Below the pieces are notes generated by a model that was given only the letters and a program-made list of their open reading frames with translations, searched no databases and was not told the origin of the DNA. A stretch of DNA of 64,000 nt from Nemertoderma westbladi (lineage: Eukaryota > Animalia > Xenacoelomorpha): contig JAUCBJ010007556.1 of assembly GCA_032718475.1 (NCBI GenBank), positions 10,074-74,073 of the forward strand, given 5' to 3'. Below, piece by piece: positions 39,251-64,000 of this stretch. A program made the translations under genes and the position numbers. Within the stretch, counting starts at the first letter, position 1; each line of letters begins with the position of its first letter.

Positions 39251-40174
39251 AGACTTTGATAAAAATGAAAACTAACTTCGGAATTGAAATCAGCGATCAA
39301 GAAAACCACAACAAAAAATGTTTTAGCTAGGTGGTATGATGTCCTTATATGTTCAGTATTCAGGGAGGAACGGTATGAAAACTATGAGTTCTTTAGCACC
39401 AGTTTGTATATTACAGTATATGTGGTCTCGGCCACGAAAAGTGAACAAAAATATTGAAAACTTTGAGTGGACATAACTTTTGAACCAGTGGACCAATTGT
39501 GACCATCGATAGCTCATTCGAACAAGCTCGACAAACTCTACAACATATAAAAATTCAGATGCAAAGGTTTTTTTAAATGGCCATATTTATCTCTAAAATA
39601 CCATGCTTATGTAGAGTATTTTGTAGAGTTTGCCCGAAACAAGAAGTGTATGCTAACTGTGACTCAACGTGCAAGGTGATCATCTACACTTACAATGCGG
39701 AGAAGAGATATGATTTCTGAAAGAGGAAATCTGGCCTGGTCTTTTAACTATATTAACGACATAAGTTAGGCCTCTGATGGATTTGGGTGCACGTTTAAAA
39801 CTGCATGTCAAAAAATCGATAATATTAGTATAATACTAGACTGTAAAGATACAGTTGCTGTAATCTTCAAACTACAGTAGTTTATGCGGATCCATTTTAC
39901 TCTTGAAGTAAAGCCTATGTATTAGCCTTTCAGGTACATCACTGCTTATCTATATTACTTTTGTCTGGAAAATAATACAAGCCTCCAAATTGTTAAATAT
40001 ATTATTTTGAGATAAAAATATAGAGTTTGGATTGTAACTTTTAAGTTCTGCCAAAAATTTGCCAACGCCGTCTTTATATTGTAATGATGCAAATCACATA
40101 ATCATTTACTTTGTCTTCCAGAAAAATAAGTCTTTACCGATTAGTGGTTATTCAAATTAGTTACTGTATATGAG

Positions 40175-42668: not shown

Positions 42669-44119
42669 ATATGAGATAAAATGTGAGTGTTTGACATATG
42701 CAATGTAGAGTTTGGATTTGGTAGAGTTTGGAAAATGCAAATTATTGATCCAAACTCGACCATATTCATGTCCAAACTCAACATTCTGCAGTTAAGCAGT
42801 TCGAAACTCTACCATCTTAATTGCCAAACTCTTACAAATTATCACTGTTGTAAGCAGTGTGATATTGAGAGGGAAGTTTAAATTTGAAACTGAATTCTAA
42901 AACTTTAATCATTATTTTTAATAATTTATGCTGACTGCTGAAACATTCTATAGTCAGTCTGTATGTAGCAGGGTTAAGTAATTTATAATCTACTTTAAAC
43001 AAAATTATAAATTAATAGTTACTGTTGAATAGAGCCGGTTTGTCTATCGACCAGTTCAGACTGAAGTAGTTTCTGTTTTAAAGAGTTTCAGTTTGGCTTA
43101 CTGCCAGATCGCTCACCCATGGTTGTATTCCCCGGCTTAATGAGTCTTGAGGATTCTCGGAATTTATCAACTTTGATGTGATTTATTTAACAATAAATGA
43201 TGATAAATCATCCATATTTACAAGGACCAAACTCGACACAAAATTGTAGAGTTTGGAAAAGGAATCCAAACCCTACACCAGGAAAAGTAGAGTTTGACTG
43301 CAATTTTACGTTTTCTGCCCATAATTTCTTAGCTTTTGAATATCTTTATGTTTTATTGTCAGATTCGCAATCAGTGGAAAAAATGCAATCGAATGATATA
43401 TACTTCTACCACTTTCCCCGACAGACACTTTTCACAGACACTTACATTGAGTAAGGTTAACATCATCACTCATAACTTTAGAATTACATATCTATTAACA
43501 AACAGTTTAAAGTTTTGGAATCCTCATAAAAGTCCGCACCAAGTGGGATTAAACTAAAATTGTTTAGAATTAGCCAACCCACCCCCCCCCCCCCCCCCCC
43601 CCACCCCTTACTTTTCAAAGCGCTTTTTTTCAATCTTATAACCTCTACAGATACTAATTACATACAAACTGTTCAAATCAACATTAATGAGATATGCAGC
43701 AATATAGGCATTTCCACTAAAAACAAGACTTCCAATTACTTCATAGTCTCATTCGAACACAATGATTGACTTAGTGGGTATAGACACACGTAATCAATAT
43801 TAGCAGTTTTAGCCATATTAGCATTTTGAGCAACAAATAACAGATCAGTTGTTTAGGTTTGGAGAATGAGCGTTTTTTGAGTTATGAGTCAATTTACAAT
43901 GTTATTATATTTAAAATTACTATCGACCAACCCCCCTCCTAATAGAGGCATTACAAAGACGTTGCCTTTTACGTGGCTCGCCCCAGACTTGAATCATTGG
44001 GAATAAGTTCGCATGAAGTCTCAATTGGAAATAAGTAAGGGAACCGTATATTAGTACCGGTGGTATGGGTATACAGTATAATAATATCATCGAATATATA
44101 GCAGTATAAGGATGAAACG

Positions 44120-44784
44120 TTATTGGTTGGACGACTGCTGGGAAGATTGCTGCTGCAGCTGATGGGAACATACGAGCAACGCATCGTGGATATCCCGAGC
44201 GCTGTTTATCTGAGTCTTTATAAGGGAGAGATAGTGGGAGTAGGATTGCGTGGCCTCCTGCGGGGGTTGTCCAGGACTCTGGTCCGGGTTAGGGGTGGGG
44301 CGTCCCCATACTCATGGGATGAGGGGACGTTAAGGGGCGTGTTACGTGAGCTGTCCGCCCCCTGCGAGATGCATTCGTAGGCGAGTCGCAGGTTGAGATC
44401 GGCCTGGTCGCAGACCGAGTAGAACTCCTCCAATGCGCGATCGACCCTCGGGGCGTTACTCTCCAGCCCAACGAATTGGTTCACGTCGATCTGGGCGTTC
44501 TGGCTGAAGTTCAACCCCGCGACTTTCAGTAGATTCGTGACGCTTTCTTTGAGTCGCGGAATGATCGCCTTAAACTCGTCAATGGGATCGGTTCGCGCGA
44601 CACCGCTGGGAATCGCCACGCCTATTTGTTCCGAAATCGGACCTGGTGGATGTTGTTGTTGCTGGGGAGATGGCATGGGTTGTTGCATGTGTTGTTGTTG
44701 CTGGAAGTGTTGCATTCCAGCCAGCATAGCCGGAGATTGGCCTCCGCTAAGGTGCTGCGGAGTCTGGGGACTGGCGTAGGCCAT
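44120..44784 (-). CDS. MED29: Mediator subunit 29 (intersex), single exon, with an apparent 1-bp frameshift near 44290
   Basis: DPIDEFKAIIPRLKESV..RVDRALEEFYSVCDQ..LRLAYEC matches the Med29 core. The conserved C-terminus YSHYLSLIKTQINSARDIHDALLVC is in another frame, ending at TAA 44120-44122. Confidence 0.92.
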
Positions 44785-45266
44785 AATTATGTAGGCCTAT
44801 GAGACAGCTGGGCGTGGGTGAATTCAGACAGATAGGTGACGGTCCCGGTGAGGTACAGCTGTACAGAGACTGACGGTGAATTTAGCTGACACACTACCGA
44901 TTAACGAGTATACCGACCTGCCGACTGAGCGACACATTAAGCAAGGTGCCAACTTTTCATTTAGGGCTACTCATCTCACGTGGCGTGGGTTAAACTGAAC
45001 TCAGTATTCGTATGCATACGATAGCTATCGTATTTGCCTATCCCTATCGTATTTGAGTCAATCGTATTTGAGTCAACCGTACAGCCGTATAGCCTACAGA
45101 TATCTGCGCTGCACTTGTTACAGCCTACTACTGTACTAAGTAGTACTACTGTAGCTTCTTGTACTTGGTTATTATTGGTTCATTTATCCTTCCTTGCCTT
45201 ACAGCCTTAACTTTACCAGCTTACTGCATACTGTAATACAGGTTAACATTAATTAATCATTGAAAT

Positions 45267-46658
45267 TGTTGTGTCCTCTACGGTAGGGGACTACCCTACA
45301 GCCTACAAATCTACTAATACGAAGCTATAGAATATCTCTATCCGTAAAGTCCAGTAGTATACCGCTTACCAGATCCTAGTAACGATGTATCTTACTAGTA
45401 ACTTGCCGCGGTGTGATTTATATGGTTTATATACGAGCTAGGTGGGTTACAGACCTAGCGTAACAATACTGATCTCCCTGTCTGAATCAGCCTAAAAGGG
45501 GTCGTGCCTAAATGTAACAATAACTGATCCCCCTGTACGAAATCAGTCTAAGAAGGGTCGGGCCTAATGTAACAATAACTGATGCTCTAGGCAAACAACA
45601 GTTTAATAACGAAAATGAAATACTCCCTCTTGCCGTAACTAAATATCAGATCCTAATTTTACAAATACCGAAAGTACGATAAATATATTCTGCCTAAAGT
45701 GATCTAAAGTGCGCTATAACTAGTAGAATTCTAAGGGTAAATATGTTTTAGGGCGTGTGTGTGTGTGTGTGGGTGTGTTACAATAAAACAATTTTGGTGT
45801 ATATCATTTCACTAGGGTTTAGTGATTTTCTGACCGAAATAATACCATGCAGCCGTGCGCTAGCTACTAAAATAAGCTAGTCGCGTTTGTAGAACTTTAT
45901 ACTTACAAATGACGTCAAAGCTCTCTCCTTCCTATCCACAACTCAACTGGGCAACCACGGTGTTAGTAACTACACCCGTGATCGGCACAAATACCAGATT
46001 CTGGTTGTAAGATAAGAAATAGGGGTTAATTGCTACCGTACGTTAGCTGATCTGGTATACAAATTTGATTCTAGAACTTTGTTGCTGCGGTAGTTAGCAG
46101 CAATACCTATCAGTACGTGGCAGCGTGGCAAGGCGTGGTAGGATATTAATAAAACCTCCCTAGGCCAAGCCGTGTGCCTGTAGCAGTAATACTCCTTGCC
46201 TGATCAAATAACCAACTTCAGGCAGGGGGGGGGGGGGGGGGGGGGCGGTGGGTACTAATGTATATTCTACAGAGCGAACCGGTACCAAACGGTCAGTACT
46301 GCGAATCACTAAATTATGAAACATATGCTGTCTGTACCTAATATGTACTCGCGTACTGACGGACGGCAATAATTCGCACCTGTGAGGTATACAGGTAACC
46401 CAGGGATTCACACTACTGACAAGGGGGGGGGGGGGGGGGGGGGGGGTTCTGCCTAAAATATAGTTATTTGATCCTAAATTTGCGGCGTCCCAGGACGGCG
46501 TCACGCTTACCCTGATCTATAGGTCTTACGTCGGGCAAGGGCGTCAAACAAAGTCTTACCTTCCTCATAAAGCGGGCGCTGCATGGCAAGTGGAGTATCT
46601 CGAAGGGCGAAGGGGGTGCGCGGTCTAAGCTAATGTGGGCGCTAGCGTGTTGTGGACA
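45267..46658 (-). repeat. BEL/Pao LTR copy 1 (terminal 3' LTR; 280-bp internal deletion)
   Basis: Sense TGTCC...CACAACA, preceded by the purine tract GGGAAAGGA. Near-identical to 49222-50852 except that it lacks 49351-49630. Flank GAAAT (45262-45266) is a candidate TSD. Confidence 0.85.
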
Positions 46659-46787
46659 TCCTTTCCCTGCGTTGCTGACGGCCTAACGGTCTAGGCGGCC
46701 ATCTTCCCGATGCTTGTTTGTCCCAAAGTTGGACGTTCAGAAAAGTACATGTTCAGAAGTTGATAGTATATTTACAGTTTACAAAAC

Positions 46788-48079
46788 GAGTTCGAGTTTA
46801 GTTCGAACTGGAGCTGCATCTCCCTTTCGCGTTGATCTGTTTCCTGTTGTTGTACCGCTAACTCCGCTTCCTGTATAGCTAAACGAGTGTTTATTTGTCG
46901 CGCTTCCAACTTGACACGAGCGTCGGATGCTGCTTTCTTCCGTGCTAACTCAGCTGCGTTTACCGCCGCAACTCGCGCTAGCTCGTCAGCCGCTGCCTGT
47001 CATACTAACTCGTCAGCTGCTGCCGCCTGTCGTGCTAACTCGTCAGCTGCTGCCGCCGCGGCCGCTTCTCGCGCTAAGTCCTCCTCCAGTCTCCGCATCT
47101 CTGATGCTTTGAACTCAGCCTGCGCTTGAAGTTTCGCAAGTTTCGCTACATCCTCTCTGCGCTGTCTTTCTCCTTCGATGGCGATATGCGCCATCTGCCG
47201 TTGCGCTTCTTCCTTGACGACTTGTTGTCGGCGTGCGACCTCATGTTGTTGTCGAGTAATTACAGACGCTGTTCTACTAACGTCGCCAACGTCGCTCCGC
47301 ACACTAACGAACGATCTATCCAGTGGTGGATTTTGGTAGGCTCGCGAGCCTTCCGTAGTAAGAACTTCCGTCGTCCCTTGCGGTTCGACTTCCGGTTCTT
47401 CGATCGGTACGCCGTTTCTACGAAGAAAATTGGTGAGCGTCCCTAACCTCCCGTCCAGGCAGTATAGTTCTTCTTCCTCTTCGGGTTGTAACAACGCGTC
47501 CGAAACTGACTCACCTAGCAGTTGGTCTAACTGCTCCTGTTGAGCCGATCTTATTTCTGACTTAAACTGGATAATGCTTTCTCTCGCACTTACCAATTTA
47601 TCTATTATCTTTACCTGAGTAAAGTTGTCTCCACGCAACTCTGCAAGTTCGTGTAAACCTTTCAGTTTATCTACGGAGGCATGTACCCTACTTTCTATCC
47701 TTACCTGTAAGGTGTAGAACTCGTATCTCGACATCGGGGTGGTTAACTCGCTTAAAACGCGAAAACCTTCTCCGAGGTTTCGAGTAATCTGGGCCATGTG
47801 TCCTCCTATACTTCTAATGACATTTTCTTGGCTTCCCGCCAAGCTTACCATGTCTGGTTCCCGTGACCTAGTCTGCGGGACTGCAAGGAAATCCTCGATC
47901 CTGCCGTCGCCACGCATTGCGGCTTCCGGTATTTCCGTTTGGGGTACCGGCGACGCACGCGGTGTGACATCGGTGGAATCTCGGGTTCTCCTTCTCGGTT
48001 CGTCTACTGTCGATCTGTCCGGGTCGCACGAGTCATAGTCGGTAGGGGGGTATCGAGTCAAATGCGGTGTGTCACTCAT
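46788..48079 (-). pseudogene. 5' part of gag of an internally deleted second unit of the BEL element
   Basis: Coiled-coil and Ala-rich ORF after the LTR and ~1.1-kb 5' UTR. Contains the element's 20-nt hairpin. An in-frame TGA at 47000 interrupts a repeat. Homology breaks at 46788 into 3' UTR sequence identical to 50853-50981. Confidence 0.7.
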
Positions 48080-49040
48080 GTCTTATTATATACGTCAAGT
48101 ACGGGTAATAAAATGTCAAAGTATCTGAATGTTGAAATGTCAAACTTACCTTGGCATATATAGTGCATATATACCCTAACCGGTACAAATAAATCAACAA
48201 AGTCAGAATGTCGAAATGTCAAAATGTCGAAATGTCCAAATGTCAAACTTACCTTGATATATATATATCATATATATACCCTAACCAGTACAAATAAAAC
48301 TAACAAAGTATATAATAAAATATGTAATAATCTAGCCTACCAGCTAAATTTGTACGAATAAATGAGATAACGGTATACGTTACCAAAATGTAGATCAACA
48401 AGTACAAATAATAGGCAAAACAGCAACGTCTAATGGGAAAATAAGTACCAATAACACTACTAATTAGACAGTGAAACCCACAAATTTTGAGTACTACTGT
48501 GCTTTCTTAAGTTTGAACGACACGAGTCATAAAACTTACGCTCCTTTGATCTTCCAGTCGTGCAAATTCCCAAATACAAACCGGACGTGGGTCTTTCGGT
48601 TTTTCGGTGGCGCGGACGAATTTTTTGTCTCCCAAACTTTGCGAAAAGCGGTCTAATCCTCGAAGCGGTCCAGAAATGAGTCCTTGAGTCCTGAAAAGTT
48701 GAAGGTGAGAGTTTTACTTCTACTCTACGAAAATCTTCCTAGGTAACGATACAACTTGGTCTTTAAACCCTATGTACCTTTTCAAGTACCGAAAATAACA
48801 CCGCACACACACGGCGTAAAACAAAATGCTACAAACTAACTATTAGCTAGTCAAATATTAAATACAAAAGTACTAGCTACCCTAAAAGCCTACTGAAGCA
48901 GGGGACGTTCTACAAATTACTAAATTTTACTAACCTTAAGATTTTAAATATCTCCTACTTACAATAGCTAACAATATATATTTATTTATATCTCACTTTA
49001 AAATGCGCACGCACCTTCAGTTAAGATATTTAATAAAATG

Positions 49041-49228
49041 TATACCTCACTGTTGTGAGGTAAACAAACATATACCACTGCAAAGTATATCTCTCACTTT
49101 CGTAAGAAAAATATACCTCACTGTTGTGAGGGATCAATACTATACACTAATTTGTATAATATATACCTCACTGTTGTGAGGGATCAATACTATACACTAA
49201 TTTGTATAATATATACCTCACTGTTGTG
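49041..49228 (-). repeat. 50-bp tandem repeats with CCTCAC-AACA-GTGAGG hairpins at the expected PBS position
   Basis: TATACCTCACTGTTGTG occurs four times (~49041, 49112, 49162, 49212). Confidence 0.85.
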
Positions 49229-50852
49229 TCCTCTACGGTAGGGACTACCCTACAGCCTACAAATCTACTAATACGAAGCTATAGAATATCTCTATCCGTA
49301 AAGTCCAGTAGTATACCGCTTACCAGATCCTAGTAACGATGTATCTTACTGTAAGACTCTAGTAATGAAACGGGCTCGTACAGTATCTGACAACAAATCC
49401 CGGTCCAGGATATCTAAACAAACAGATACAATACACAAACTACTACTGGCGAGGAGCAGAGCCTGGTGTCTATTCTATGTACGTGAGCGGGTCTAATGCC
49501 TACGAACTAGACAAAAGGATACCTGTCCTCTAACCGGTATGGCAGATGTACAGTTACAGTAACAGACCAAACTCACGGGAAAACAATCCCCGCGCAGCGA
49601 ATCCTAACTATCGCTGACAGTCCTAAATACAGTAACTTGCCGCGGTGTGATTTATATGGTTTATATACGAGCTAGGTGGGTTACAGACCTAGCGTAACAA
49701 TACTGATCTCCCTGTCTGAATCAGCCTAAAAGGGGTCGTGCCTAAATGTAACAATAACTGATCCCCCTGTACAATATCAGTCTAAGAAGGGTCGGGCCTA
49801 ATGTAACAATAACTGATGCTCTAGGCAAACAACAGTTTAATAACGAAAATGAAATACTCCCTCTTGCCGTAACTAAATATCAGATCCTAATTTTACAAAT
49901 ACCGAAAGTACGATAAATATATTCTGCCTAAAGTGATCTAAAGTGCACTATAACTAGTAGAACTCTAAGGGTAAATATGTTTTAGGGCGTGTGTGTGTGG
50001 GTGTGTTACAATAAAACAATTTTGGTGTATATCATTTCACTAGGTTTTAGTGATTTTCTGACCGAAATAATACTGTGCGCTAGCTACTAAAATAAGCTAG
50101 TCGCGTTTGTAGAACTTTATACTTACAAATGACGTCAAAGCTCTCTCCTTCCTATCCACAACTCAACTGGGCAACCAGGGTGTTAGTAACTACACCCGTG
50201 ATCGGCACAAATACCAGATTCTGGTAGTAAGATAAGAAATAGGGGTTAATTGCTACCGTACGTTAGCTGATCTGGTATACAAATTTAATTCTAGAACTTT
50301 GTTGCTGCGGTAGTTAGCAGCAATACCTATCAGTACGTGGCAAGGCGTGGTAGGATATTAATAAAACCTCCCTAGGCCAAGCGGTGTGCCGGTAGCAGAA
50401 ATACTCCTTGCCTGATCAAATAACCAACTTCAGGCAGGGGGGGGGGGGGGTACTAATGTATATTCTACAAAGCGAACCGGTACCAAACGGTCAGTACTGT
50501 GAATCACTAAATTATGGAACATATGTTGTCTGTACCTAATATGTACTCGCGTACTGACGGACAGCAATAATTGTGATGGTAACTGTGAGGTATACAGGTA
50601 ACCCAGGGATTCACACTACTGACAAGGGGGGGGGGGGGGGTTCTGCCTAAAATATAGTTATTTGATCCTAAATTTGCGGCGTCCCAGGACGGCGTCACGC
50701 TTACCCTGATCTATAGGTCTTACGTCGGGCAAGGGCGTCAAACAAAGTCTTACCTTCCTCATAAAGCGGGCGCTGCATGGCAAGTGGAGTATCTCGAAGG
50801 GCGAAGGGGGTGCGCGGTCTAAGCTAATGTGGGCGCTAGCGTGTTGTGGACA
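49222..50852 (-). repeat. BEL/Pao LTR copy 2 (~1.63 kb, shared between the two tandem units)
   Basis: TGT...ACA ends, purine tract at 50853-50861, TATA-like GTATATAAA near 49660-49668, ~54-bp tandem repeats upstream of it. Confidence 0.85.
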
Positions 50853-51270
50853 TCCTTTCCCTGCGTTGCTGACGGCCTAACGGTCTAGGCGGCCATCTTC
50901 CCGATGCTTGTTTGTCCCAAAGTTGGATGTTCAGAAAAGTACATGTTCAGAAGTTTATAGTATATTTACAGTTTACAAAACTTTATCAAATAGAATTGCC
51001 AAATAGTTTCGACAAGAAACTAGGTAAACTAAGGAAGGGATAAGTTAAGGTGATAACTAGTGATAACCGAAGGCAAACCAGCCCTTTATATACTAAATCT
51101 GGGACATAGAATCCACTAGAATTTTCTAGAGTATTCCATGGCCTCACATTGGAGCAATAAGATATTCCATGCCCTATGATTGGCCCAACTCATCGTTCCA
51201 TGTGTTGTACGCACCTCATTGGTTTGTCAATTTGTATGAAATGAAAATAAATTGCCCCAAAATGCAAATT

Positions 51271-51340
51271 TCCCGACTGGGATTCGAACTCGTAACCTAT
51301 GTAATGCAACCAACGCCTTAACCATCTGACCACTACGCCA
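51271..51340 (-). pseudogene. tRNA-like (Pol III A/B-box) segment in the retrotransposon 3' UTR
   Basis: GGCGTAGTGGTCAGATGGTTAAGGCG...GAGTTCGAATCCC. D-arm plausible, anticodon and acceptor arms degenerate. Confidence 0.6.
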
Positions 51341-52129
51341 CGAGATTAACTAGGGGTTTTATGTGTACTGATATGAATAGGCATATTACATTACTGTAAC
51401 TTAATCAAAATGCGTCGGATTTTCGAAAGTTTTTACGTTATACTACAAATGCTATCCTATAGTGAAATAATTCATCACCGCTCCATGAAAACAGTAAGTA
51501 AGACTGTTTTCACCAATCGAAATACAAACTTATTTACAAATACTTCTAAATCTACTGGTAGGGCCTAAAATATAAAATAATCACTATCGAATTATTGCAT
51601 ACTTAATATTGCAGGTACGGCGTAAATACAATCTATCATACATACAAAATACAAATTTACCAATCAACTTTAGTGCATAAAATACAAAAAAAGGCTTTCG
51701 GTTATCAAGATAAACAAATTAAACAAATCAGAACAAAATAAATCAAAACAAATCGAACAAATAATTTCAAATCTTTCAATAAGTTTTATATATTGTAAAT
51801 ATACATAATAAATTCACTAAATTAAATCAGTCCAAATATAAAATAAACATAATGCGCTAATAATCTTTCAAATAAATCCCAAAGTGTCCTCCTGACAATC
51901 TTAAAAGTTCGTCCTGCTGGTCTGGATATATTCTCCTGAGCACTAATTGCTAACGGTAGGCTCGCAAGCCTTCCTTCTCTATCTCGCTCCTCCAAACCCA
52001 ATTTCCAATATAAATACTCAAATATAAAGTGTCCAAATATAATATCCCAATATAAAGTGTCCAAATATAATATCCCAATATAAACATCCAAATCGGTAGG
52101 CTCGCAAGCCTTCCTTTCTTCTCGCTTTT

Positions 52130-53632
52130 CTATTCCTTGGCCGAACGGGCTCGTCCACACCCTCTAGTACGACTGGGTGGTGGTCGAGGTCGAACTGGAC
52201 TCGGACTTCGGTGTCGAGTTGTCGGTGGTTCCAAAACGCTAGGAAATGGGACGACGGGAGTTTCGCACATCCATTGTGCGCTCAGTCCTCTAAATCCTCG
52301 TCCGATTCCAATCGTCGGCTTAACATCGGATCGAGTTTCTACAATGCTGGGAGGAAGTCGAAGGGGTGGGACTGTTCCGTCCGTTGACACCTCGCTCTCT
52401 GATGTCGTTTGAATCCTAATGGGTTCCGGCAAAGCGTATCCTGTCCCTCCGCGTGGTTCTCTAGCAAGGGAAACCGTGCCCCGAGTCATCCGGATTTGCG
52501 ACTTCGATGTCATCCTCTCGGCGACATTTACTACTTTCTTTATCTCTTGTCCGGCCTTTTGGGCTCTAAGTATACGAAGTTGCGGATCATCCTGTGGGTG
52601 ACGCGTCTTTTGAGCTAACGGCGTGGCCTTGAAGCCAGTCTCACGCAAAACGTCGGTCTCGTCTAGAATGCACGAGGTTACTCGTTTGTGATAAAATGCG
52701 CTCCTGTATGCCCAAGCTATCGAATGCCAGGCTCCTCGATTCCGCTGTTCAACTCGCAATTTGTCGAATTCCCCGGCGGTAATCTTGTTCACCACAGTTT
52801 GAAAGTTCCAAGTATTCTTGTTGTCAGGGTGTACCTGTAGAAAGTAGTCCCGCACAACTTTAAATCCGCTATCCAGTGGCAATATATCCAGCACCTCCAA
52901 AAGTTCGTCGTATTGAGGCATAGCCGACACGTATCCTTCCTTCGACATTATGAGAGGGTTTACGGCCCAAAATCCTAAGTGTGCTCTCATAGGGAAACGG
53001 CGTCGCTGCGTTGATACATGCTCGTCTGCTAGATTCTCCCAATGGTCGAATAGCTGTCGAACGATTTTAACTGACATATGCTCATAGGGGACGTCTCTAA
53101 GTTGACATTCGGATGCCCTATGGCCTTTAATATTACAATACGTGCACTGCGCCACGAAACGCCAGCAAGTGCAGAAAGTGTGCAAACGCTGATCCCCGCA
53201 CCAGTTGCATACCAAGTCCGGTAGAGATATGTGTTTCGCTCCGCATTTCTTTGCGTGGTGGCCAGTTGCCCCGCATCTGCCACAAATAGTGTTGGCAGGG
53301 TACCAAACTCGCTCATAGATAAGATCTCCGATGGGGCGAGCGCTATCGTCCACGTGATAATTCTCATCATCCGGGTCAGTCGGTATGTTCGTCTCCGTGG
53401 GTTGTACACAAACCATGGCATCGCTTTTCTCCAACTCGCATATTTCAGTTCGCGTCTTCCTTGGAAGGTTCTCCTCTATTTCTATGAGTTGCCGCAACGG
53501 TTCGTCTATTATCGCCAACTCGGTCGGATCCACATCGTCGTGATGGGCGGTAGGCTCGCGAGCCTTCCAGGATCCTTCCGGGCCTTTGAATTCCGCGTGG
53601 CATTCCTCGTCATAGGGTACTAACGTTAACAT
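52130..53632 (-). CDS. Retrotransposon accessory ORF-C: three CCHC-type zinc knuckles
   Basis: 500 aa with CGRCGATGHHAKKC, CNWCGDQRLHTFCTC and CTYCNIKGHRASEC. Located between integrase and the 3' LTR. Confidence 0.8.
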   Translation of the reverse strand: MLTLVPYDEECHAEFKGPEGSWKAREPTAHHDDVDPTELAIIDEPLRQLIEIEENLPRKTRTEICELEKSDAMVCVQPTETNIPTDPDDENYHVDDSARPIGDLIYERVWYPANTICGRCGATGHHAKKCGAKHISLPDLVCNWCGDQRLHTFCTCWRFVAQCTYCNIKGHRASECQLRDVPYEHMSVKIVRQLFDHWENLADEHVSTQRRRFPMRAHLGFWAVNPLIMSKEGYVSAMPQYDELLEVLDILPLDSGFKVVRDYFLQVHPDNKNTWNFQTVVNKITAGEFDKLRVEQRNRGAWHSIAWAYRSAFYHKRVTSCILDETDVLRETGFKATPLAQKTRHPQDDPQLRILRAQKAGQEIKKVVNVAERMTSKSQIRMTRGTVSLAREPRGGTGYALPEPIRIQTTSESEVSTDGTVPPLRLPPSIVETRSDVKPTIGIGRGFRGLSAQWMCETPVVPFPSVLEPPTTRHRSPSPVRPRPPPSRTRGCGRARSAKE

Positions 53633-55056
53633 CGACGGTCTGTCGACGTTAGGCTTCCCGCGTGAGTGAGATAGACGTCCCTGAAAACGCTAAGTCCCGC
53701 TCCCGTGAAAACTTCGCAGTGCGCATTGGTGTTATAAAAGGGTTGGAGAAATCGTCGGAATACATCAGTATGCGTCCTTCCTCCATCGTAAAAGGTATGT
53801 CCTTCACCGAGACATAACGGATGTCGCTTTAAAGTCCTAGACACTACATCGGCGATGAAGCAAACGTTGACCGAAAATTCTATCGCCAAGTAGTATTGTA
53901 AGATTATTTGCGGAGGTGAAGTAATCGCCCAGTACATGCAACCTCGCCACTTTAGCTGTGACTCGAACTCGTTTACGTCGGGAGTATCTCCCTCTCCGTA
54001 TACGTCCGTGTATTTGCTCCTCTTACTCTCCTTATAATCCCAACTGAACATTAGATATGAGATATAACCCGTCCCAGTTTTTAGCGTGTTATACTCCCTA
54101 AAATATCCTTGCTCAATAGCCCAAAGCAACAATGGTCTAGTATCCACGTATGGCGTAGGCAATCGATCCTCTTCCGTGGGCATCCCTGCGAAATCGCTGA
54201 TAAGGTCATCCCGTACACCGGATCCGATCTTGACGATGCTCTTGTCTAACACAACGTCTCGCACGGCCTTTGGCAACATCCTAGCTTCTATGCTACAAGC
54301 CAGGTCCATGGATTTAACTATCCATTTTATCATCGCGTGTCTTTGCGTCGTTCCTTCCGGCATAGGCATCTTTCTATCACTCCTTTGTCGGCTGAAGACA
54401 TGTAACACGCCATCTGGTGCTCTAATCTGTATAGTCTTCAAAGTGAGGCTTTGCTGGTGGCTTCCTCCTTCATTATCGTAAAACATGTAACCATTCTCCT
54501 TCAGAGATCGGCTAGTCACGTCCCAATCGTCGAGTAAATCGTTGGTAGGGTTCCAAATTCTCCCAATCGACTTTTCATCATCGAAACTAATAGGTTTACC
54601 GGTCCAATTGGTCGCGATATCGGTGTCGGTCTCAAATGTTCCGACTCCAATCCATAATCGAATCGTTTTCGTTAGATATCCTCGCAAGATACAAGGTGCG
54701 ATATCCGTCCCCGCGCGATCCACTTCCTTAAAGTCCGTAATATGTGGAGGCACGTTGCGTACGATTTTCTGAACTATTGTTCTACGCAACTCGGCTGACT
54801 CTAACACATCATCATAGGTAACCGATGGGAGGAAATCCAGGTTCGAAATGATCTCCGGGTGTTCAACTATAGGAATCTCGTAAGTTGTCTCCTTCCGGGT
54901 CGGTATACTAATAGGAAAGCTAGTTGGTCTCGCAACCGGTACTATCGTTCCAGCAGAATGGGGTTGAGGTTCTCGCGTCATCTCGACATGAGGTATCTGT
55001 AGTCTCTGCGACAAACGCTGAGCAAAGGTGATACTATCGAAGAGCTCGGGTGTCAT
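53626..55056 (-). CDS. Retrotransposon accessory ORF-B: WRN/EXD/Mut-7-type DEDDy 3'-5' exonuclease-like protein
   Basis: 476 aa. ExoI-like FYDNE, TIQI, ExoII-like LPKAVRDVVLDKSIVKIGSGVRDD, YVDT, and degenerate ExoIII QYYLAIE. Confidence 0.72.
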   Translation of the reverse strand: MTPELFDSITFAQRLSQRLQIPHVEMTREPQPHSAGTIVPVARPTSFPISIPTRKETTYEIPIVEHPEIISNLDFLPSVTYDDVLESAELRRTIVQKIVRNVPPHITDFKEVDRAGTDIAPCILRGYLTKTIRLWIGVGTFETDTDIATNWTGKPISFDDEKSIGRIWNPTNDLLDDWDVTSRSLKENGYMFYDNEGGSHQQSLTLKTIQIRAPDGVLHVFSRQRSDRKMPMPEGTTQRHAMIKWIVKSMDLACSIEARMLPKAVRDVVLDKSIVKIGSGVRDDLISDFAGMPTEEDRLPTPYVDTRPLLLWAIEQGYFREYNTLKTGTGYISYLMFSWDYKESKRSKYTDVYGEGDTPDVNEFESQLKWRGCMYWAITSPPQIILQYYLAIEFSVNVCFIADVVSRTLKRHPLCLGEGHTFYDGGRTHTDVFRRFLQPFYNTNAHCEVFTGAGLSVFRDVYLTHAGSLTSTDRRC

Positions 55057-55891
55057 CTCCTTGGGTTCGGTTTGATCGTGGGATATCCAATAGAATTGTA
55101 GGCTCGCGAGCCTTCCGCCGAACTCCTCGATCTCGCCTTTCTCGTACGCCTTGTAACGCCCTGTAGAGGCTCAAAGCTTCCCGTTTCTCTTGCGTCGACT
55201 TGTTAGACTCGTCCACTACCATGCTGTAGACGTCTGGTTCGACTAATTTAGGTTCGTAAATAACGATCTCACCCGTGTTCGGTCCACTCATCTTAAATGA
55301 ATGATACGGATTCATCAAAGGGTATCCGCCTTCTTGGTAACGTAGACTTTGGTGGTATGAGCATCGCGCTAATATCGGCTCGGGGTTCTCCGAGTTCAAC
55401 CGCATAGGAATCGCGTTGTCTTGCTCGCGCATACATGCTCCACATTTGTAAAACAGTTTGTATATGGAGAACGCGTCCTTTGTCTCTGGATCCGCTCCTC
55501 GAGCGTGTCTATAAAGATGCATTCCTTCGAATTCGTCTCTAGCTGCAGGTAAGGGTTCGTTTACCGTCAAATATTGCAGCATATGATATAATCGGCGTAT
55601 CTTTGTGTCTGGATCCTCGCAAATGTCACTAGCGTCGCATAACGCATCGTAAGGATATAACGCATTGAACTCCGTGCGTAATTCCTCCGTTCTTTTGTTA
55701 TAAGCGTCCAATCGCTGTTTAGTCACATTCGGGTCCGCCTTGGATTTAGCGAGCTTGGCTGTACTCCTAGCCATACTCTCCACTCCAAACACACTAAAGT
55801 TTTTAGCTCCATAATGATTAAACGGCACCTGGTGCTCTTGTTCCTGCGTAAACCCCTGACGTAACTCTTTAGAAATCTTCTCCGCCATCAT
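55034..55891 (-). CDS. Retrotransposon accessory ORF-A, unknown function, possible metal-binding CxxC...CxxH
   Basis: 285-aa ATG-initiated ORF with CGAC...CSYH, directly downstream of a canonical 3' splice site. Confidence 0.65.
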   Translation of the reverse strand: MMAEKISKELRQGFTQEQEHQVPFNHYGAKNFSVFGVESMARSTAKLAKSKADPNVTKQRLDAYNKRTEELRTEFNALYPYDALCDASDICEDPDTKIRRLYHMLQYLTVNEPLPAARDEFEGMHLYRHARGADPETKDAFSIYKLFYKCGACMREQDNAIPMRLNSENPEPILARCSYHQSLRYQEGGYPLMNPYHSFKMSGPNTGEIVIYEPKLVEPDVYSMVVDESNKSTQEKREALSLYRALQGVRERRDRGVRRKAREPTILLDIPRSNRTQGDDTRALR

Positions 55892-55925
55892 ATACGCGTA
55901 TATATGGTTACATATCGTTACGTTT

Positions 55926-55955
55926 CTACTAGATGAAGCACAAAATAGAGGTTAG
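55926..55955 (-). promoter_or_regulatory. Candidate 3' splice site for accessory-cassette mRNA
   Basis: CTAAC branch point, pyrimidine tract CTCTATTTTGTGCTTCATC, then TAG/TAG, ~35 nt before the ORF-A ATG. Confidence 0.6.
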
Positions 55956-56630
55956 ATGTGAGGTGACTTAGAGTTTGTCGGCTTTTGGCTCAACTTTGCT
56001 CTAAAACCCCAACCCATTTGCCTAATGACTTCGGGTTCGCGTGATTTCGCACTGGCTCCTAATCCAAAAAATGTGCTGATAAAAAACGAATTCCGGGTAA
56101 ACTAGCCGCGAGTCTTAAATACTCACCTTTTAATTTCCCAAACTACATTCCCAAAGAAATAATGCAGTCGAGAATTAATTCGGTCTAAATAATAGTAGAC
56201 ACGACTACGTAGAACAAGGCCGATTTTCTTTTCCAAAAAAATTTATTGGTAGGCTCGGAAGCCTTCCATCCACTCTTGTCCTCCCCAATTTTAATTTTTT
56301 TATCTAGCTGTATTCTAGAATTCGCATTCACTGGAGAATCATTTTTCTTAAATTTAAATCCAACTAAATGGATTTGTCTAATAATTTTTGAAAAATTGTC
56401 TCACTTGTGGGTTCCAAGTGGAATTCCATTCCTACTGTACGTACACACAATCCCGCTCCTATGTGATACATAAGGGTACTACCCTCCATGTTCACATATA
56501 AAGACAATGGAATTCCACCGCTGTCTCTATCTATAGTGAAGAGGATTACAAATGCACATACAGTAATACAAAATACTAAATTACTAAAATACGGTAAGTC
56601 TATGTGGCGGCCAACAAAGGTCCCACATCT

Positions 56631-59600
56631 CTATTTACTAATATTGGGTGGAGATTTGTAGTCTCCTGTCTCGTTTCTAGTCTCCTCAAGGAGTACGAGA
56701 CGTTGTACAGGTCTGTCTACGGTACGACCGTCGATAGTCCTTACAGTAACTGTCCTTACTACACCAGATGTAGGGTGCGTGGTCAAAATGACTCCAGTCA
56801 GCCAAAACCGTCTTTTCAGATTGGCTTCAGCCAATAAAACGTGGTCACCGCGTCTCAAACATCGGGTATTAAGATACCAAGAGGTTCTGGTCGAAATAGA
56901 GGGCAAATAATATTTCTGCCATATTTCCCAGAATTTATTTGCAAGCAATTGAGTGATTTTCCAAGCTTTGTTGCCGTATCCGTCGCTATCAACGGGTACC
57001 GAAATGGGCAACAATGTCGTCGGCGCCTGCATAAGCAGGTGCGCTGGTGTCAAGTCAAACTGTACATCGTTATTGTCTGGGATCAAAGCGATCGGTCTAG
57101 TGTTTAAAATCGCTTCGATTTCTATTAGTAACGTCGTCAGTTGGTCGTCTGTCAAAATGTGTTGCGTCGGTATTACTTTAGCCATAGCTGTCTTAATTGA
57201 GCCAATCAACATTTCCCAAACGCCGCCTCTCCACGGACTGTCTGGAGTATTAAAATACCAAACAATACGGTGAGGACGTAGTTCCTCGGAAATCTGGTTT
57301 TGGTCCAACTTCCTTAAAGCCCTGGTTATTTCGTTCCGTGCACCCACAAAGTTTGTCCCTTGGTCACAATAAATGGATTTGACCAATCCACGTCTAGCGA
57401 TAAATTGCCGTAAGGCTAGGATAAAGGCATTGGTGGTCAAATCTGTCACACGCTCAATATGGACAGCTCTGCTGGCCATGCAAGTGAAGATCAATCCCCA
57501 ACGTTTTACCTGTACCCTTCCGAGTTTCGCGATTATGGGTCCAAAACAGTCTATCCCTGTCTCAGTGAAAGGGGGTCTAAACGCCTGTAATCTCGCTAGT
57601 GGTAGTTCACTCATTTCTTGGTGTCCTATCCTCGCGTGCACCTTCTTACAAATCATACAGTTCCGTGTTGCTGAACTCAGTGCCTTACTAGGTCTAATCA
57701 GTACAAACCTCAATCGTAAGTGTGATAGACAGTGGTGTCTACCCACGTGTTTGAGTTGTACATGTGCGTCCAGTATCATAGCGCGCTGTAATTCATGGTG
57801 TTGCGGTATGATCATAGGATACCTAAAGTCTAGTGCAAAGTCGATGTTTTGGAGTCTGGACTTGTGACAAAGTAAGCCCCGGTAAATAATCGGACTCCAA
57901 CTCAAAATCGGTGAAGACTTGATCTGTTTACCTTGGTTGATCGCTGTGAACTCTCGTGCGAAATATCGCAATTGATAATGTCTAATGATATCAACTTCAC
58001 AATGACCAACTTCCTTTAAGGTAAGTCTTCTAGGAAAGTCGCGTTTGCCTCTGGCATATTGTCTCAAACATTTGAGCCATGCTAACTTGCGGCACGTGTC
58101 AGTCCATGATCTAGTTAGGTTTACTATCCTGTCAACGTAAGTGTTAGTGACGTCATCAGGTAAGGTATAGTCATAGTGTGGATACTGTCTGGACTTGGTA
58201 GGCCCATGGGCCTTCCGGTAGGTTTGTCTGAGTCCCCAAGTATGTCAATCTCTACGGTCTTACCTTTACCATCCGCTCCTAATATGTCAACTGGCAGTAA
58301 CGGTTTCAACTCTACGTCTGGCGAAAGTCTGGCGTAACTTCTGTCAGAAAGTCTGGTCTAAAGTCTGGTGGACAGTCTGTCGAGATGTCTGGTGGAAAGT
58401 CTGGTGAGACGTCCTGTAGACATTCTGTCGAGAGTTCCATAAAACAGTCTGGCGAACAATCCGGAGAACAATCTGGTGTCGCTTCTGGTGAATAATCTGG
58501 CGAGTAATCTGGTGAACAATCCGGCAAAACGTCTGGTGAAATCTCCCGCGGAACATCCGGTGAAAGATTCGTACGAACGTCTGGTCGAGAGTCTGGTGAG
58601 ACTTCTGGCATAATGTCAGGTCTAGCGTCCAGGTCATCAGATTTCGTCCGTCCTTGTTTTATCTTGACCTTGGCATTGGCTTTCGCTTTTGATTTGACAA
58701 CCTTGTCGATTTTTATCTCGGCACCCTCTGGTATGGTATTGGTTGTCGCATCAAATAACGGTGGCCATTCGTCTGATGGTCGCTGTAGGAAATTGGGTCC
58801 TCTAAACCAAAAGGATTTATTGTCCGGTTTACAAAAGTCAAGCGGTTGCATTCCCCGTGACGCGATGTCGGCTGGGTTCAGCTTCCCTGGACAGTGACGC
58901 CAATCTTGTTTGAGCGACCGGTCTAATATTTCAGCCCGTCTTTTGGCTACGAAAGTCTTGAACTCGAACGCTTCGTTGTTTATGTACCAAAGTACCAACG
59001 TCGCATCCGTCCAATAGGTGACCTTCAAGTTAGCCTCCAGCTCGCGTTGAACTAGACTGACAATATCGGTGGATATCATCCCAGCTTGCAGCTCTCCACG
59101 AGGTACAGTCATATACTTCAATGGCATTGTTCTAGCCCTAGAAGTAACGAGAGACACATTGTAGCTGTCCGATGTCACTTGTCATCTAAGGTATAAAGTA
59201 ACCCCCAATCCATCCTTGCTAGCGTCACTAAAGCTGTGAAGCTCTAAATCGGCAGGAAAGGTGGTCTGCAAAGGAAAGTATACCCTTGGTATGGTATAGT
59301 CTTGTAGGAACGTCAGTTGGGCTTCCCAGTCCCTCCATTGCTCAGCTAACTTTTCTGGGATGGGGTCGTCCCATTCCAGTCCGGCTTGCCAAATGCTGCG
59401 GAGTATGATCCTAGCACGTAGGATCACTGGACTAATGAAACACAATGGGTCATACAATCAACTCATGGTCGATAAGCAAGTCCTCTTAGTGAGAGGTCTA
59501 GTCTGGTCGTTGGACCTTACACGTACCCTAAAATTGTCGGTGTTAGGGTCCCAACTAAGTCCTAATACTTTGGTCGTTGGTAGAGGTTCTAGGTCTAACT

Positions 59601-62600
59601 CCAAGTCACCTCCACTGCGATCAGTCGGGTCAAATGAGTTCACTAGTTCGGGTTCGTTGGAAGCGAACTTCGTCAGGCGGAATCCGCCCTCAGCGAGACA
59701 ATCCTGGAGTTGGTGTGCTATGGTTGTAGCGCGCTCCAAAGTGTCACAACTCTTGAGGCCGTCATCCACGTAGAAATCTCATTCCACTGTCCGAACTACT
59801 TCTGGGTCAAATTGGTCTCGTCTGTCCAATGCGGTCTGCTTTAAGGCGTACATGGTGCAGTTGGGGCTGTCCCTGGCTCCGAAAACTCGTACCTGCATTT
59901 GGTAAGTTTCTGGCGGAAGTTCTAAATTTCCGTCCGGATACCAAAGAAACCTCAGACTGTCCCTGTCCCGCTCCAAAGCCTTAACGTGGTGAAACATGGC
60001 CTCTACGTCACAGGTGAAAGCCACTTTGCGTTGTCTAAAACGCATTAGGACTCCCATGAGGTAATTATTCATATTCGGCCCGTCCATCAATTCGCTGTTC
60101 ATAGACATCCCTTGGTAAAGCGCGGCGCAGTCGTTGACTACACGCATCTTGCCAGGTTTGTCCGGGTGTCGAACAAAATGATGTGGCAGGTAATATGTCT
60201 GGTCTGTGGTTACCTCGGGATTTAACATCCTAATGGCGTATCCCTTTTGGGATACGTCTGAAGTTGCGCATTGTATTGCATATGGGCCGTCTCGTCTCGC
60301 AACAATCGCTGCCTTATTGATTTGAGTCGCCTCAAAGCAAGCGGGTAATTGTTAACAACCTTAGGTTGTCCATTTGCGCCACAACATGCCAACCTCATAG
60401 TGGCCATTCGCGGTCTGGCGAATGGTATCTCTCATAATATTTAATGACCGTTTTTCCTGTTCTGACATAGTGGTCTCGTAACTACCGGGTTCTGCTGAGT
60501 CCTGTTCCAACCATTGAATGGTCCGTTCAGTCAGCAGTCGGTCAAGCGCTGCTTGCACTGCGCCATGGTCCTCGTCCACATCTTCGTCCGCTGCGGCGGC
60601 TAGTGTCAATGTGTCTGGTAGGCTTGCAAGCCTTCCGGTGTCACTAGTCGGCGTCAAATCATCGTGCGGCGGTTTGACAACTTCTTGATCTGTCGGTAGG
60701 CTCGCAAGCCTTCCAAGATCAACGACCGGTGTCGAAGCCTGGTGGGTGGGGTCAATGACCTTTGGATTTTTCGGTAGGCTCGCAAGCCTTCCAAAACCCT
60801 CGTTCATCGAGTCATCCACAGCAACAACCCTTTGGTCTTCGGTAGTCAATACAACCTGGTCTACTGCAAGTAGTTGTAAGTCAGAGGTCCGTGTGGTCGT
60901 GTCCAGATCAGTTACGTCAGTATCGGTTGCGTCTGCGTTTGCAACGCAAGTCTGTCGTAGTGCCGTCCGTACAATTGGACCATGGGAGTGTGAAGGAGAA
61001 TTATCTATCGTAGTTGTCAATAAACTACACGTACTCAAAACGTCGTCCTCCTGGTCACTTACCTCTAGTGAATGTACTGGTGCTCTAGTATACCAACCTA
61101 TGGGAGTTCTACATGCGTAGGGGTTGCCCGCTGTAATAACAGATGGGCGTGTCTCCCATACCTGATGTAAGTTAAACTGGTCTGTCCCGATTAACATCGC
61201 GATGGAACGATAGTTAACAGGACATTCCGGTATTCCAAGGTGTCGGAAATACTTACAATCTTCCGGTGATTGCTCTGGCACAGGGCCAAGCAAGTTACTA
61301 AAGTCCTTCGTAGCTGCAAAGGTCAAATTTCTTACTGGAAGTAATGAGCGCTCCTCCTTGCTGTGTTCCGCTTTGGAAAGAAGAGTGTCTAAGGTTAGTT
61401 TTACTCTCATCACAGGAATCGCTCTCTTACCATGCATGCTGCTTACAGTATACTGAGCAGTCTTACCTTGACTCATGTCTGTAACCACGTCGGCTACTTG
61501 TTCGTCGACATAACTATGGGATGACGCAGCGTCCAAGATAGCGTATATACGCTTGCTCCCTCGGGTTCCAGTAATCTTTATAGGAATCACGCTAAACCCT
61601 TTCAATTGGTTCTGTGTGAGGAGTGTTACCGATGGCTGTTCCTCACCCGCATGCACGTAAAATGTGTCGTCTTCCTCCTCGTCATCGTCCGATGATCCCG
61701 ATTGATCCATACAATCCGTGTAGAAAGTACGAATCTCGCGCGGCACACGCTCCTTATAAAGCGCGTCGCATCTAGCCGCTTTATCTGGATGCTCTCGTCG
61801 AAAGCGTCTGGTCGGAGTATGACTGGTAGTGTGAAGTAACGCGTCATGGTTACGTCCACACAGAGGACATGTATCGTCGCTCGGGCAATCCTTCCGGACG
61901 TGTCCTGGCTTCGTACATCTCCAGCAAGAATCCAAAGATCGAATTTGAAGTCTTCTCTCTTCGATTCCTAACTCCTTAAAAGCGCGACATCCACGTAGTT
62001 TATGTCCACTATGGTTTCTGCCGTTCCGCTCGCAGTATGAGCATCCCGCAAAGTCCGCCGGCAACTGTTGTCGTGGCTGCGTGGTGCCGATAGGCGTCAG
62101 AACTTTAGAAGTCTCAGTAGGGGTGGCGTAGGTAACGGCTTTCGCGTTCGTCGGAAATGGTTTAGTCCGATTCGGCGCATAAATAGCTATCCCTTCTGCC
62201 GTGATATGATGATCGGTATAGTTCGATCGAGTCTCGATCACGGCCTCCCGCGAAATCAGTTGGTAGACGTCGGTGAGTTTTAGTAGCCCGCCGGCCTCTT
62301 CACGCTGGTACTCGATGCGTCGCCATTCTCGTCGAAGTCGATGATGAAGTCTACCGATTATTCGAATGAGAACCGTCGGTGCGTTAGCGTATTCGAGTTG
62401 TCCAATGGACCGTAAAGTCCCTATAGCGTTCTTAATTTTGTCCGCGAGTCGTAATAGGTCGATCGGTTTCAAAATGCTGCCTCCTCTGCAGAGGTCTTCA
62501 ATAATGGATTTAGCCATGGCGACATTACCTCCGTAAATCGAATATAGACGGTCGTACGCCAACTCAAAGGCATCTGGAACACCAATAAAGGTTTCCGCTA

Positions 62601-64000
62601 ATCGTTTCGGCTCACCAGACAGGACTAGGAGCAAGTAATTAAACTTCTCCGTTGAGGTGAAAGCGCACTTAGCGATCTGGGACTCTACGTAGTCTACCAA
62701 TGTTCGCCAGTGTTTCGCATTGCCAGAGAACTTCGGCAGTTGTTGTGTTGGTGTGGTAATCCGTGTCTAGCTGCAAATTTCACAATCTCGCTAACGAAAT
62801 CCAACTGTCCGCGTCCCTGTTCGGTTGCGTCGTCCAGTCGTTCCCTTCCGCGCGTTGTTCGTCGGTAGGAATTATTAACGGGATCTTCTTCTCGATGGGT
62901 CGGAGTCTGTCTAGTCTCCTGTTCTCTCCTTGGTGGTCGATGTTGTCTAGGTTGTTCTAACTCCATGCTGGTTCGTGATCGATCCGACGGTTGCGCTTCG
63001 AGTCGCTCTTCGAGTTGAGCTAGTCGGTCTGTCATCTCGGTGAACTGTTTGGCGCTGATCGTCTCCACTGGTTGCAACGTGGGTTTCTGCAAAGGTGTTT
63101 CTCGTGGAGGATTGTCGATGTAGGGGTTCGTCGCGCTCTCCTCCCGTTTGTAATCAGCCGCAGCTGCCGCTCCAGTACGGAATATTTCCCGTTCCGTCGA
63201 CTCCGAGTCACTGGATGAGTCGCTGTCATCCGGATAAGGTGGTTGGTGGGTACGCGTCCGGCGTATTACCTTTTGTCTCACTCGTTGGGGTCCAGAATCT
63301 ACGGTTCTCCGTCGTTCGGTAGGCTCGCAAGCCTTCCACGAAGTCGTAGGTCTCGATAAACGTTGTTCGATCCTGCGGGTACTACCCACATCCGTCCTCC
63401 TCCGTTGTTCGTTAGGCTCGCAAGCCTTCCACGAAGTCGTAGGTCGCGTCGAACATTGTGTCAAAGGTCGAGTAAAGTAGTTCGGTTTCATAGTCGGTCT
63501 ATAAATAACTGGGTTCGCACCAGACGTCACAGGTTTAACTTGTAATGGTTTACTCACCTGTTTTACCATCATAAACGCAGGTTCGTCTCTCTCTACAAGT
63601 AAACTACAGCTTACTGTAGGTGGACTACTTATCTTACCTGCGAGAATCGGCGATGAAGTCGCTCGTGGCTGCGGAATCGATTCCGATATAACAAACCTAT
63701 TACCTTGTACGGGTGATATTTCCTTCGGTTTTGCAACCATAACCGGTTTTACTGGAGTCGTGGGTTTGAGCATAGGAATAACTTGGGGAAAACGTTTACA
63801 GTAATCCTCGACGAACTCCTCTCCTAGATCTATCGCTCCTACACTTCCTTCCTCGATTCGCTTCTGAATTCCACGATACCGAGTCTCCATGCGATCCAGG
63901 GCAGACAAGTCATGTCCGGCTCGAGATCTTATAGATCTATCTCTCGCGTCGAGTTTGAGGTCCTCTTGCGCGTTCGCCGCCTCGCGCGATCTGCGATTTA
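56631..64000 (-). pseudogene. BEL/Pao gag-pol polyprotein with several frameshifts and in-frame stops (runs off the window end)
   Basis: Domain order: gag (DUF1759-like KFNYLL..LSGEP; knuckles CWRCTKPGHVRKDC, CPLCGRNHDALLH), protease AILDAASSHSY, RT (YYLPHH, RVVND, DVEAMF, FGARDSP, FYVDD), RNase H (LHSFSDAS, YWTDA, NPADIASRG), integrase (H..H..C..C, DCFG, DQGTNF, WRGGVWE), C-terminal FW..W...Y and RPVQRL. Confidence 0.95.

Follow-up and report, generated by a model that had tools for sequence, protein, structure and literature searches.

A 20-nucleotide (nt) imperfect palindrome occurs twelve times, always in one orientation, within and beside a BEL/Pao long terminal repeat (LTR) retrotransposon of the xenacoelomorph Nemertoderma westbladi, in a stretch of 64,000 nt (the window; contig JAUCBJ010007556.1, positions 10,074 to 74,073). 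The motif is a real, family-wide and strongly conserved nucleotide element. The evidence supports constraint at the nucleotide level, independent of reading frame, with a slight lean toward the sense RNA as the molecule concerned. As to function, the leading candidate, held tentatively and at a little below an even chance, is a dispersed dimer-linkage and compaction signal of the genomic RNA, resembling the PAL1-PAL2 signal of Ty1 but repeated along the genome.

A pattern scan of the window finds all twelve matches to GGAAGGCY-N4-RGCCTACC on the minus strand, the sense strand of the element, at the positions reported in a first-pass annotation (Table 1); 100 dinucleotide shuffles of the window contain none. 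Relative to the consensus GGAAGGCYNNNNRGCCTACC, ten copies are exact and two carry a single mismatch. Scored with a weight matrix, the copies reach 26.3-39.2 bits and the next best site in the window 6.8 bits, so the window has no degenerate or decayed copies. The same scan confirms, within the window, the annotation's remark that the motif is absent from the LTRs and from host DNA (the LTR pair and ~45 kb, respectively). Between 51001 and 64000 no other 11-mer is seen three times across more than 1 kb, leaving the motif as the sole dispersed repeat of this kind. The count of twelve stands, but the copies are not all independent: they form 8 sites, with local clusters at 51955/52095, 60617/60695/60773 and 63318/63411, and local duplications of 78, 93 and 140 nt contain motif copies. 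Likewise, the description of the motif as running throughout the BEL element holds for the 11 copies of the main unit and not for the copy at 47335, which lies in a putative second, deleted unit.

Table 1. Motif copies and other features of the element. Centres are given for the sense strand.
Feature	Coordinates	Strand	Remarks
Motif	47335..47354	-	Centre CGCG; frame 2, gag-like 5' open reading frame (ORF) of the putative second (deleted) unit, between LTR-like repeats
Motif	51955..51974	-	Centre UGCG; non-coding 3' region; upstream purine-rich run 17/20
Motif	52095..52114	-	Centre UGCG; non-coding, 15 nt past ORF-C stop; upstream purine-rich run 18/20
Motif	53549..53568	-	Centre CGCG; frame 1, ORF-C N-terminal part
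Motif	55097..55116	-	Centre CGCG; shared by the end of ORF-A and the start of ORF-B, which overlap; arm mismatch private to window copy
Motif	56248..56267	-	Centre UCCG (private to window copy); non-coding, between pol and ORF-A
Motif	58197..58216	-	Central six bases a different palindrome, CCAUGG; frame 1, RNase H-integrase linker
Motif	60617..60636	-	Centre UGCA; frame 0, protease-reverse transcriptase (RT) linker
Motif	60695..60714	-	Centre UGCG; frame 0, protease-RT linker; 78-nt period
Motif	60773..60792	-	Centre UGCG; frame 0, protease-RT linker; 78-nt period
Motif	63318..63337	-	Centre UGCG; frame 1, gag N-terminal region; 93-nt duplication
Motif	63411..63430	-	Centre UGCG; gag N-terminal region; arm mismatch private to window copy
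BEL/Pao gag-pol	56631..64000	-	Window copy broken by stops and frameshifts; continues beyond window end
Extra ORF-A	55034..55951	-	305 amino acids (aa), stop to stop; no family by Pfam or protein search
Extra ORF-B	53626..55170	-	514 aa; WRN/DEDDy-like 3'-5' exonuclease, lead only
Extra ORF-C	52130..53689	-	519 aa; CCHC zinc knuckles (zf-CCHC E 0.0028, below cutoff)
LTR-like repeat A	49222..50981	-	Motif-free; true 5' edge not located
LTR-like repeat B	45267..46787	-	No motif; 22 substitutions in 1475 aligned bases relative to repeat A
Leader and gag-like 5' ORF (47000-48082)	46788..49221	-	Putative second tandem unit; apparent relation to gag
Hairpin CTCAC-AACA-GTGAG	49040..49230	-	Three copies and one partial, the partial overlapping LTR end; directly after LTR A

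Protein constraint is rejected as the cause of the motif, because the nine coding copies use all three frames (translations GRLASLP; xKAxEPT/RKAHGPT; EGSRAY) and the remaining three (51955, 52095 and 56248) are non-coding, as previously annotated. That a long, almost invariant site persists within coding regions, despite its cost in three frames, implies strong selection. All four gag-pol copies are located in linkers where at most 5 of 120 BEL relatives align, in contrast to the 76% of 56631-62766 that is covered by at least 30 of the 120 in tblastn. The A residues at motif positions 3 and 18, which form an A·A mismatch, are fixed in 12/12 copies, consistent with the invariance noted earlier, and the base directly 3' of the motif on the sense strand is a purine in every copy. 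An internal polypurine tract was also considered and rejected as a general role, since a purine-rich run (at least 16 purines in the 20 bases upstream) precedes only 3/12 copies.

Comparison of the copies with one another separates the motif from its surroundings. Over the 66 copy pairs, arm identity averages 15.33/16 and the flanks agree at only 8.2/29 and 7.9/29. The three 78-nt repeats retain arms of 16/16 with flanks of only 7-16/29, and 63318/63411 is the only pair in which the upstream flank is still alike (24/29). Other members of the family were sampled in public contigs from six runs of four studies, five labelled as one organism and one (X5) as another; depth in these contigs does not give copy number, and X1 is possibly the source of the window itself. 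None of the runs is listed as RNA, X5 being an RNA run by conjecture only. Contigs on 51500-64000 number 15,241 in X1, 7,353 in X3, 210 in X4 and 34 in X5, covering 30, 30, 29 and 24 of 30 bins, and these counts fit a large repeat family. At 55097 essentially all contig depth carries the common motif letter (32 contigs in X1, 30 in X3, 5 in X4), as it does at 63412 (27 in X1, 22 in X3), both readings coming from 40 of 1353 substitution rows. At 56258, in the odd centre, the common letter accounts for 100% of depth (12, 10 and 1 contigs in X1, X3 and X4); X5 has no contig over 56200-56315. Because the family contigs read the common letter, all three departures are private to the window copy. 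Three such changes in 220 motif bases approximate the decay expected from the LTR pair, which has diverged by 1.5%. A joint from 60637 to 60825 in X1 and X3, whose short side spans 21 letters (the motif and one more) before 34 other letters follow, is read as a diverged subfamily that has kept the motif with a UGCA centre and changed its flank. Pieces from X5 cross 58197, 60695 and 60773 at ~96% identity. The X5 contigs as a whole, labelled as the second organism and spanning 56397-61212 at ~96%, could reflect a close species, a mislabel, contamination or horizontal transfer.

The centre of the motif provides insight into what is being conserved. On the plus strand it reads CGCA in six copies, CGCG in three, and TGCA, CGGA and CATG in one each. 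The first-pass annotation described a stem that is kept around four freely varying bases; the stem is indeed kept, but the centre does not behave as an unconstrained loop, because CGGA (sense UCCG) is private to the window copy. The four remaining sense centres, UGCG, CGCG, UGCA and CAUG, are all self-complementary, which points to a whole imperfect palindrome that could pair with a second copy. Sense pair 8/13 is U-A in eleven copies and C-G in one; pair 9/12 is U·G in seven, C-G in four and U-A in one, never C·A, a pattern that would fit a path of compensation in RNA. The central dinucleotide is GC in ten copies, AU in one and the private CC in one. Since adjacent bases cannot pair within a hairpin, central symmetry points to copy-copy pairing or to a dyad. 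At 58197, where a compensatory change had been proposed, the central six bases are replaced by another palindrome, and the five coordinated differences suggest that the CAUG centre is family-wide. Assignment of the centre as a UNCG tetraloop is weakened, in that UCCG is private and neither CAUG nor UGCA fits. The dispersed cis-acting RNA stem-loop of the annotation is upheld as a constrained nucleotide element, though not as a stem-loop only; the evidence points to a whole pairing palindrome.

Predicted energies allow for both hairpin and duplex. The hairpin is computed at -7.6 kcal/mol (-9.6 for 58197), and sense homoduplexes of 18 base pairs (bp) at -30.7, -34.9, -31.3 and -36.2 kcal/mol, with the private UCCG type at -21.7 kcal/mol. 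The antisense-strand homoduplex of the commonest type is weaker than its sense counterpart (-22.9 kcal/mol). In a 200-nt context, upper-stem probability exceeds 0.9 for 7/12 sense and 8/12 antisense copies, so folding alone cannot choose the strand. Within each of the three clusters, mutual pairing of two neighbours is predicted (14.9-16.1 expected pairs).

In a dimer-linkage and compaction signal, each site in newly made genomic RNA would be folded as a small hairpin, which would open, probably with assistance from Gag, to form an 18-bp duplex whose partner is another site or a second genome. Such site-site duplexes would link and compact the RNA for packaging, and the very long RNA is the proposed reason for repetition of the site. 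The fixed A·A mismatches would split the duplex to a 14-bp core, speculatively for protein recognition or for avoidance of perfect double strand. A new site would arise mostly by local duplication and survive only in tolerant linkers as its flanks drift. We infer RNA rather than DNA as the substrate, Gag as the chaperone and packaging as the purpose. Precedent comes from Ty1, in which PAL1-PAL2 is a hairpin in the monomer and becomes an extended duplex once Gag induces dimerisation (PMC6844567), and from Ty3, in which a 5' palindrome is required for dimers (PMC11381356). An extension of this scheme, which we consider doubtful, is a genome-long zipper: near-identical, self-complementary 20-mers placed every ~1.7 kb, in every tolerant linker, would staple the ~17-kb RNA either internally or onto another genome. 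If true, such a zipper would overcome the constraints that packaging and reverse transcription set on how large an LTR element can be, and it would be undescribed in any retroelement.

Several points weigh against a linkage and compaction signal. Known dimer palindromes are single and located at the 5' end; the leader here is motif-free, with another hairpin instead. Covariation across the twelve copies is not above that of shuffles (two two-sided pairs, a number reached by 55/500; score equalled by 196/500), and the argument from central symmetry depends on one event, that at 58197. Self-complementarity would arise in 6% of random centres (14% with G·U), and the series CGCG>UGCG>UGCA equals the path of CpG decay (6/12 transitions in the LTR pair are at CpG). 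The seven U·G cells may share one ancestor, and direct duplication by itself accounts for co-orientation. One loose end in X3 has a degraded outer arm. Duplexes of 58197 with the other types are predicted at only -17 to -22 kcal/mol, and in the folding model a strong duplex would be expected from any palindrome. Even spacing of the sites is suggestive only: the gaps of 1.0-2.5 kb (8 sites over ~15 kb; coefficient of variation 0.32, P ~0.003 relative to random placement) include one assumed gap that is a lower bound and follow post hoc merging of clusters, and the linkers are themselves spaced.

The motif might instead act as double-stranded DNA, in the form of an imperfect dyad through which ORF-A, ORF-C or a host factor coats the provirus and keeps it transcribed or unmethylated in the manner of VANC, a reading we regard as unlikely though a genuine competitor. 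Dyad symmetry with 7-bp arms is in keeping with such a site, as are growth by local tandem duplication, seen also in VANC targets (PMC5735166), and the presence of three extra ORFs without assigned role. Host DNA contains the half-site GTAGGC more often than expected (28 vs 7.5), and likewise TAGGCCTA (11 vs 0.3). CpG observed/expected is 0.92-1.39 in the element ORFs compared with 0.58-0.70 in non-genic host DNA, but it is near 1 in host coding genes too, and against a loss of methylation stand the 6/12 LTR-pair transitions at CpG. The fixed asymmetry also argues the other way, as a homodimer should accept A and T alike at the third arm position and a symmetric dimer would be expected to allow drift, whereas a non-canonical RNA pair would explain the A·A invariant in 12/12. 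The LTRs, the expected home of a transcription factor site, carry no copy, VANC motifs span 8-9 nt of non-coding sequence whereas these are 20 nt with 9/12 copies coding, and Pfam and protein searches recognise no DNA-binding domain among the element proteins. If true, a DNA site would provide an animal retrotransposon counterpart to VANC anti-silencing. A further alternative, which we judge no better than unlikely, is a stand-alone RNA hairpin with an A·A mismatch, bound by Gag, the ORF-C knuckles or a host factor for packaging, export or stability, with no copy-copy pairing. The predicted upper stem of seven sense copies and the U·G at pair 9/12 on the sense strand agree with it, and precedents exist in dispersed packaging signals (PMC6281560) and in the element-encoded export factor of Cer1 (PMC10309623). 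It leaves the self-complementary central dinucleotide unexplained, however, and predicts a variable or fixed loop where the sole non-palindromic loop is private; among neighbouring copies, moreover, mutual pairing is predicted to win.

A neutral by-product, in which a small palindrome is copied and homogenised by RT template switching or gene conversion and tolerated in linkers, is improbable. It accommodates the 78-, 93- and 140-nt duplications that carry copies and the avoidance of conserved domains by all copies. The motif translation, moreover, appears in 0/120 distant BEL polyproteins (0.6 expected), so that the motif is dispensable for BEL elements generally. Such drift is at odds with arms that stay at 16/16 in duplicated units whose flanks are near random, with the empty interval from 6.8 to 26 bits where decayed copies would score, and with 58197, which is not homogenised with the other copies because its five coordinated differences preserve symmetry. 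We view as very improbable a role in processing or recombination where modules meet (as a site of RNA cleavage, recoding, template switching or recombinase action), which the copies flanking ORF-A, B and C and those at the protease/RT and RNase H/integrase borders would suit. Among the 15 of 153 contig joints considered, those touching the motif have a short side of 21-24 letters, which is the motif itself, and the internal deletion with the best support (52260 to 55326) ends away from it; a self-complementary centre carries no direction, and the use of three different frames speaks against recoding.

Dimer-linkage palindromes are among the closest known systems. Ty1 PAL1-PAL2/SL1, Ty3 PAL6 and retroviral dimer initiation sites share its self-complementarity, the hairpin-to-duplex transition being only predicted here, but they are 6-17 nt long, present once or a few times, and located at the 5' end; the BEL/Pao motif is a 20-mer at 8 sites in gag, pol, the extra ORFs and the 3' region, with none in the leader and with a fixed A·A. 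Retroelement dimer or packaging signals are known as single 5' structures, from which a site repeated along the genome would differ. The dispersed packaging signals of MS2 and of the hepatitis B virus pregenome are, as predicted here, many genome-wide stem-loops that include coding sequence, but they share a short recognition motif of varied affinity, in contrast to near-identity over 16-20 nt and mutual complementarity (PMC6281560); the weight matrix reveals no weaker, graded sites in the window. VANC targets of Arabidopsis VANDAL elements are similar in their family-specific motif, tandem growth and extra ORFs, and dissimilar in being 8-9 nt, non-palindromic, non-coding, part of a DNA transposon and bound by a demonstrated protein (PMC5735166). 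The bdelloid elements Juno and Vesta, with DEDDy exonuclease ORFs, likewise carry extra ORFs 3' of pol, one of those here being likely DEDDy-like (PMC5408684), and the giant LTR elements Burro and Ogre have large size in common with the element here (PMC6431247). By the available passages, none of these four is BEL/Pao and none has a dispersed palindrome (PMC5408684, PMC6431247); the word "hairpin" does not occur in PMC5408684. Extra DEDDy ORFs in LTR elements are thus already known (PMC5408684). Transcript length, RT processivity and packaging limit LTR retrotransposons near 10 kb (review, PMC6431247), and the motif gives a handle on how elements far above that size transcribe, package and copy their RNA. 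As a 20-nt unit, it makes the RNA duplex, hairpin and DNA-site models separable with oligonucleotides.

So far, the motif appears confined to this BEL/Pao family. Pattern scans elsewhere return single matches at 68/68 viral, 11/11 metagenome and 4/4 prokaryote loci, as expected by chance, and the 79 viral and metagenome loci hold no second copy at one mismatch. An origin akin to bacterial repetitive extragenic palindromic (REP) elements, which the motif resembles, is unsupported because only single, scattered matches occur in these sources. No BEL relative is found on viral contigs, and Rfam gives five weak matches over 44900-64000, all below gathering and none over a motif copy. Consistent with the annotation's remark that no such motif is described for BEL/Pao, our literature search, which lay outside Repbase, Dfam, GyDB and subscription journals, found no dispersed palindrome in BEL/Pao or any other LTR element, no cis-acting RNA elements of BEL/Pao, and no match for the motif half-site together with "retrotransposon". 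The host enrichment of GTAGGC and TAGGCCTA concerns positions 1-21500 and 38000-45260, with a cluster near 19999-20666; the element body lacks TAGGCCTA, and its motif includes the GTAGGC half. Among the best 25 of 283 literature matches to this 8-mer, nothing is relevant.

The host element is a BEL/Pao LTR retrotransposon. Pfam assigns DUF1759 and a CCHC knuckle (zf-CCHC) at 60361-62766, Peptidase_A17 at 58312-59181, and Integrase_H2C2 with DUF5641 at 56631-58244, and the block order in tblastn (DUF1759/CCHC Gag, Pao Peptidase_A17, Integrase_H2C2, DUF5641) matches BEL/Pao. Protein search at E<=1e-20 yields 540 polyproteins of BEL type, of which the best 120 have 32-40% identity; relatives with a named source come from animals, and together with Med29 in the flanking DNA they identify the host as an animal. 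The motif-bearing gag-pro region has no close protein relative among the shorter lengths searched. The part of the main unit inside the window measures at least 14.8 kb, and the full unit would reach ~19 kb after addition of a leader, gag start and one LTR. The LTR-like repeats end in CA, repeat B lacks ~270 bases that repeat A has, and the window stops short of the main unit's 5' LTR. The interval 45267-50981 (LTR, leader, gag start, LTR) is probably a second, internally deleted tandem unit. Its leader at 48083-49221 has no motif copy by weight-matrix or pattern scan. The CTCAC-AACA-GTGAG hairpins occupy the usual location of a primer-binding site or packaging signal, and no TGG start is evident by eye after LTR A, whose true 5' edge was not located.

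Close relatives of ORF-A, ORF-B and ORF-C are absent from every protein search made. The three ORFs overlap end to start and may represent one broken gene. ORF-B is likely a WRN/DEDDy-like 3'-5' exonuclease, as a lead only (score 0.90, recognition under 2300, below the tool threshold); candidate D-x-E, D and Y-x-x-x-E residues can be located by the DEDDy motif pattern. It has no Pfam match and no protein relative of near length, the exonuclease part has no PDB match, and single-sequence fold prediction gives a predicted local distance difference test (pLDDT) of 31. ORF-C yields a single weak knuckle match in protein search. In X3 and X4, some contigs are 3065 bases shorter across 52260-55326, a deletion variant without most of ORF-B/ORF-C and two motif sites.

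Other parts of the window add further detail. On the minus strand, a run of short SPD-like repeats at 58340-58620 expands the RNase H-integrase linker, and a tRNA-like A-box/B-box stretch is apparent by eye at 51270-51345, in the element 3' region, where ARAGORN calls no tRNA. Fragments resembling non-LTR retrotransposon reverse transcriptases by eye (3970-5415, 9570-10607 and 13047-13523) are motif-free. A 35-bp satellite array extends from 21750 to ~36000, with ~290 register copies listed. Two intact host ORFs lie on the minus strand, one at 19033-20040, presumably a nucleotide-sugar transporter, and one at 44218-44796 that Pfam identifies as Med29.

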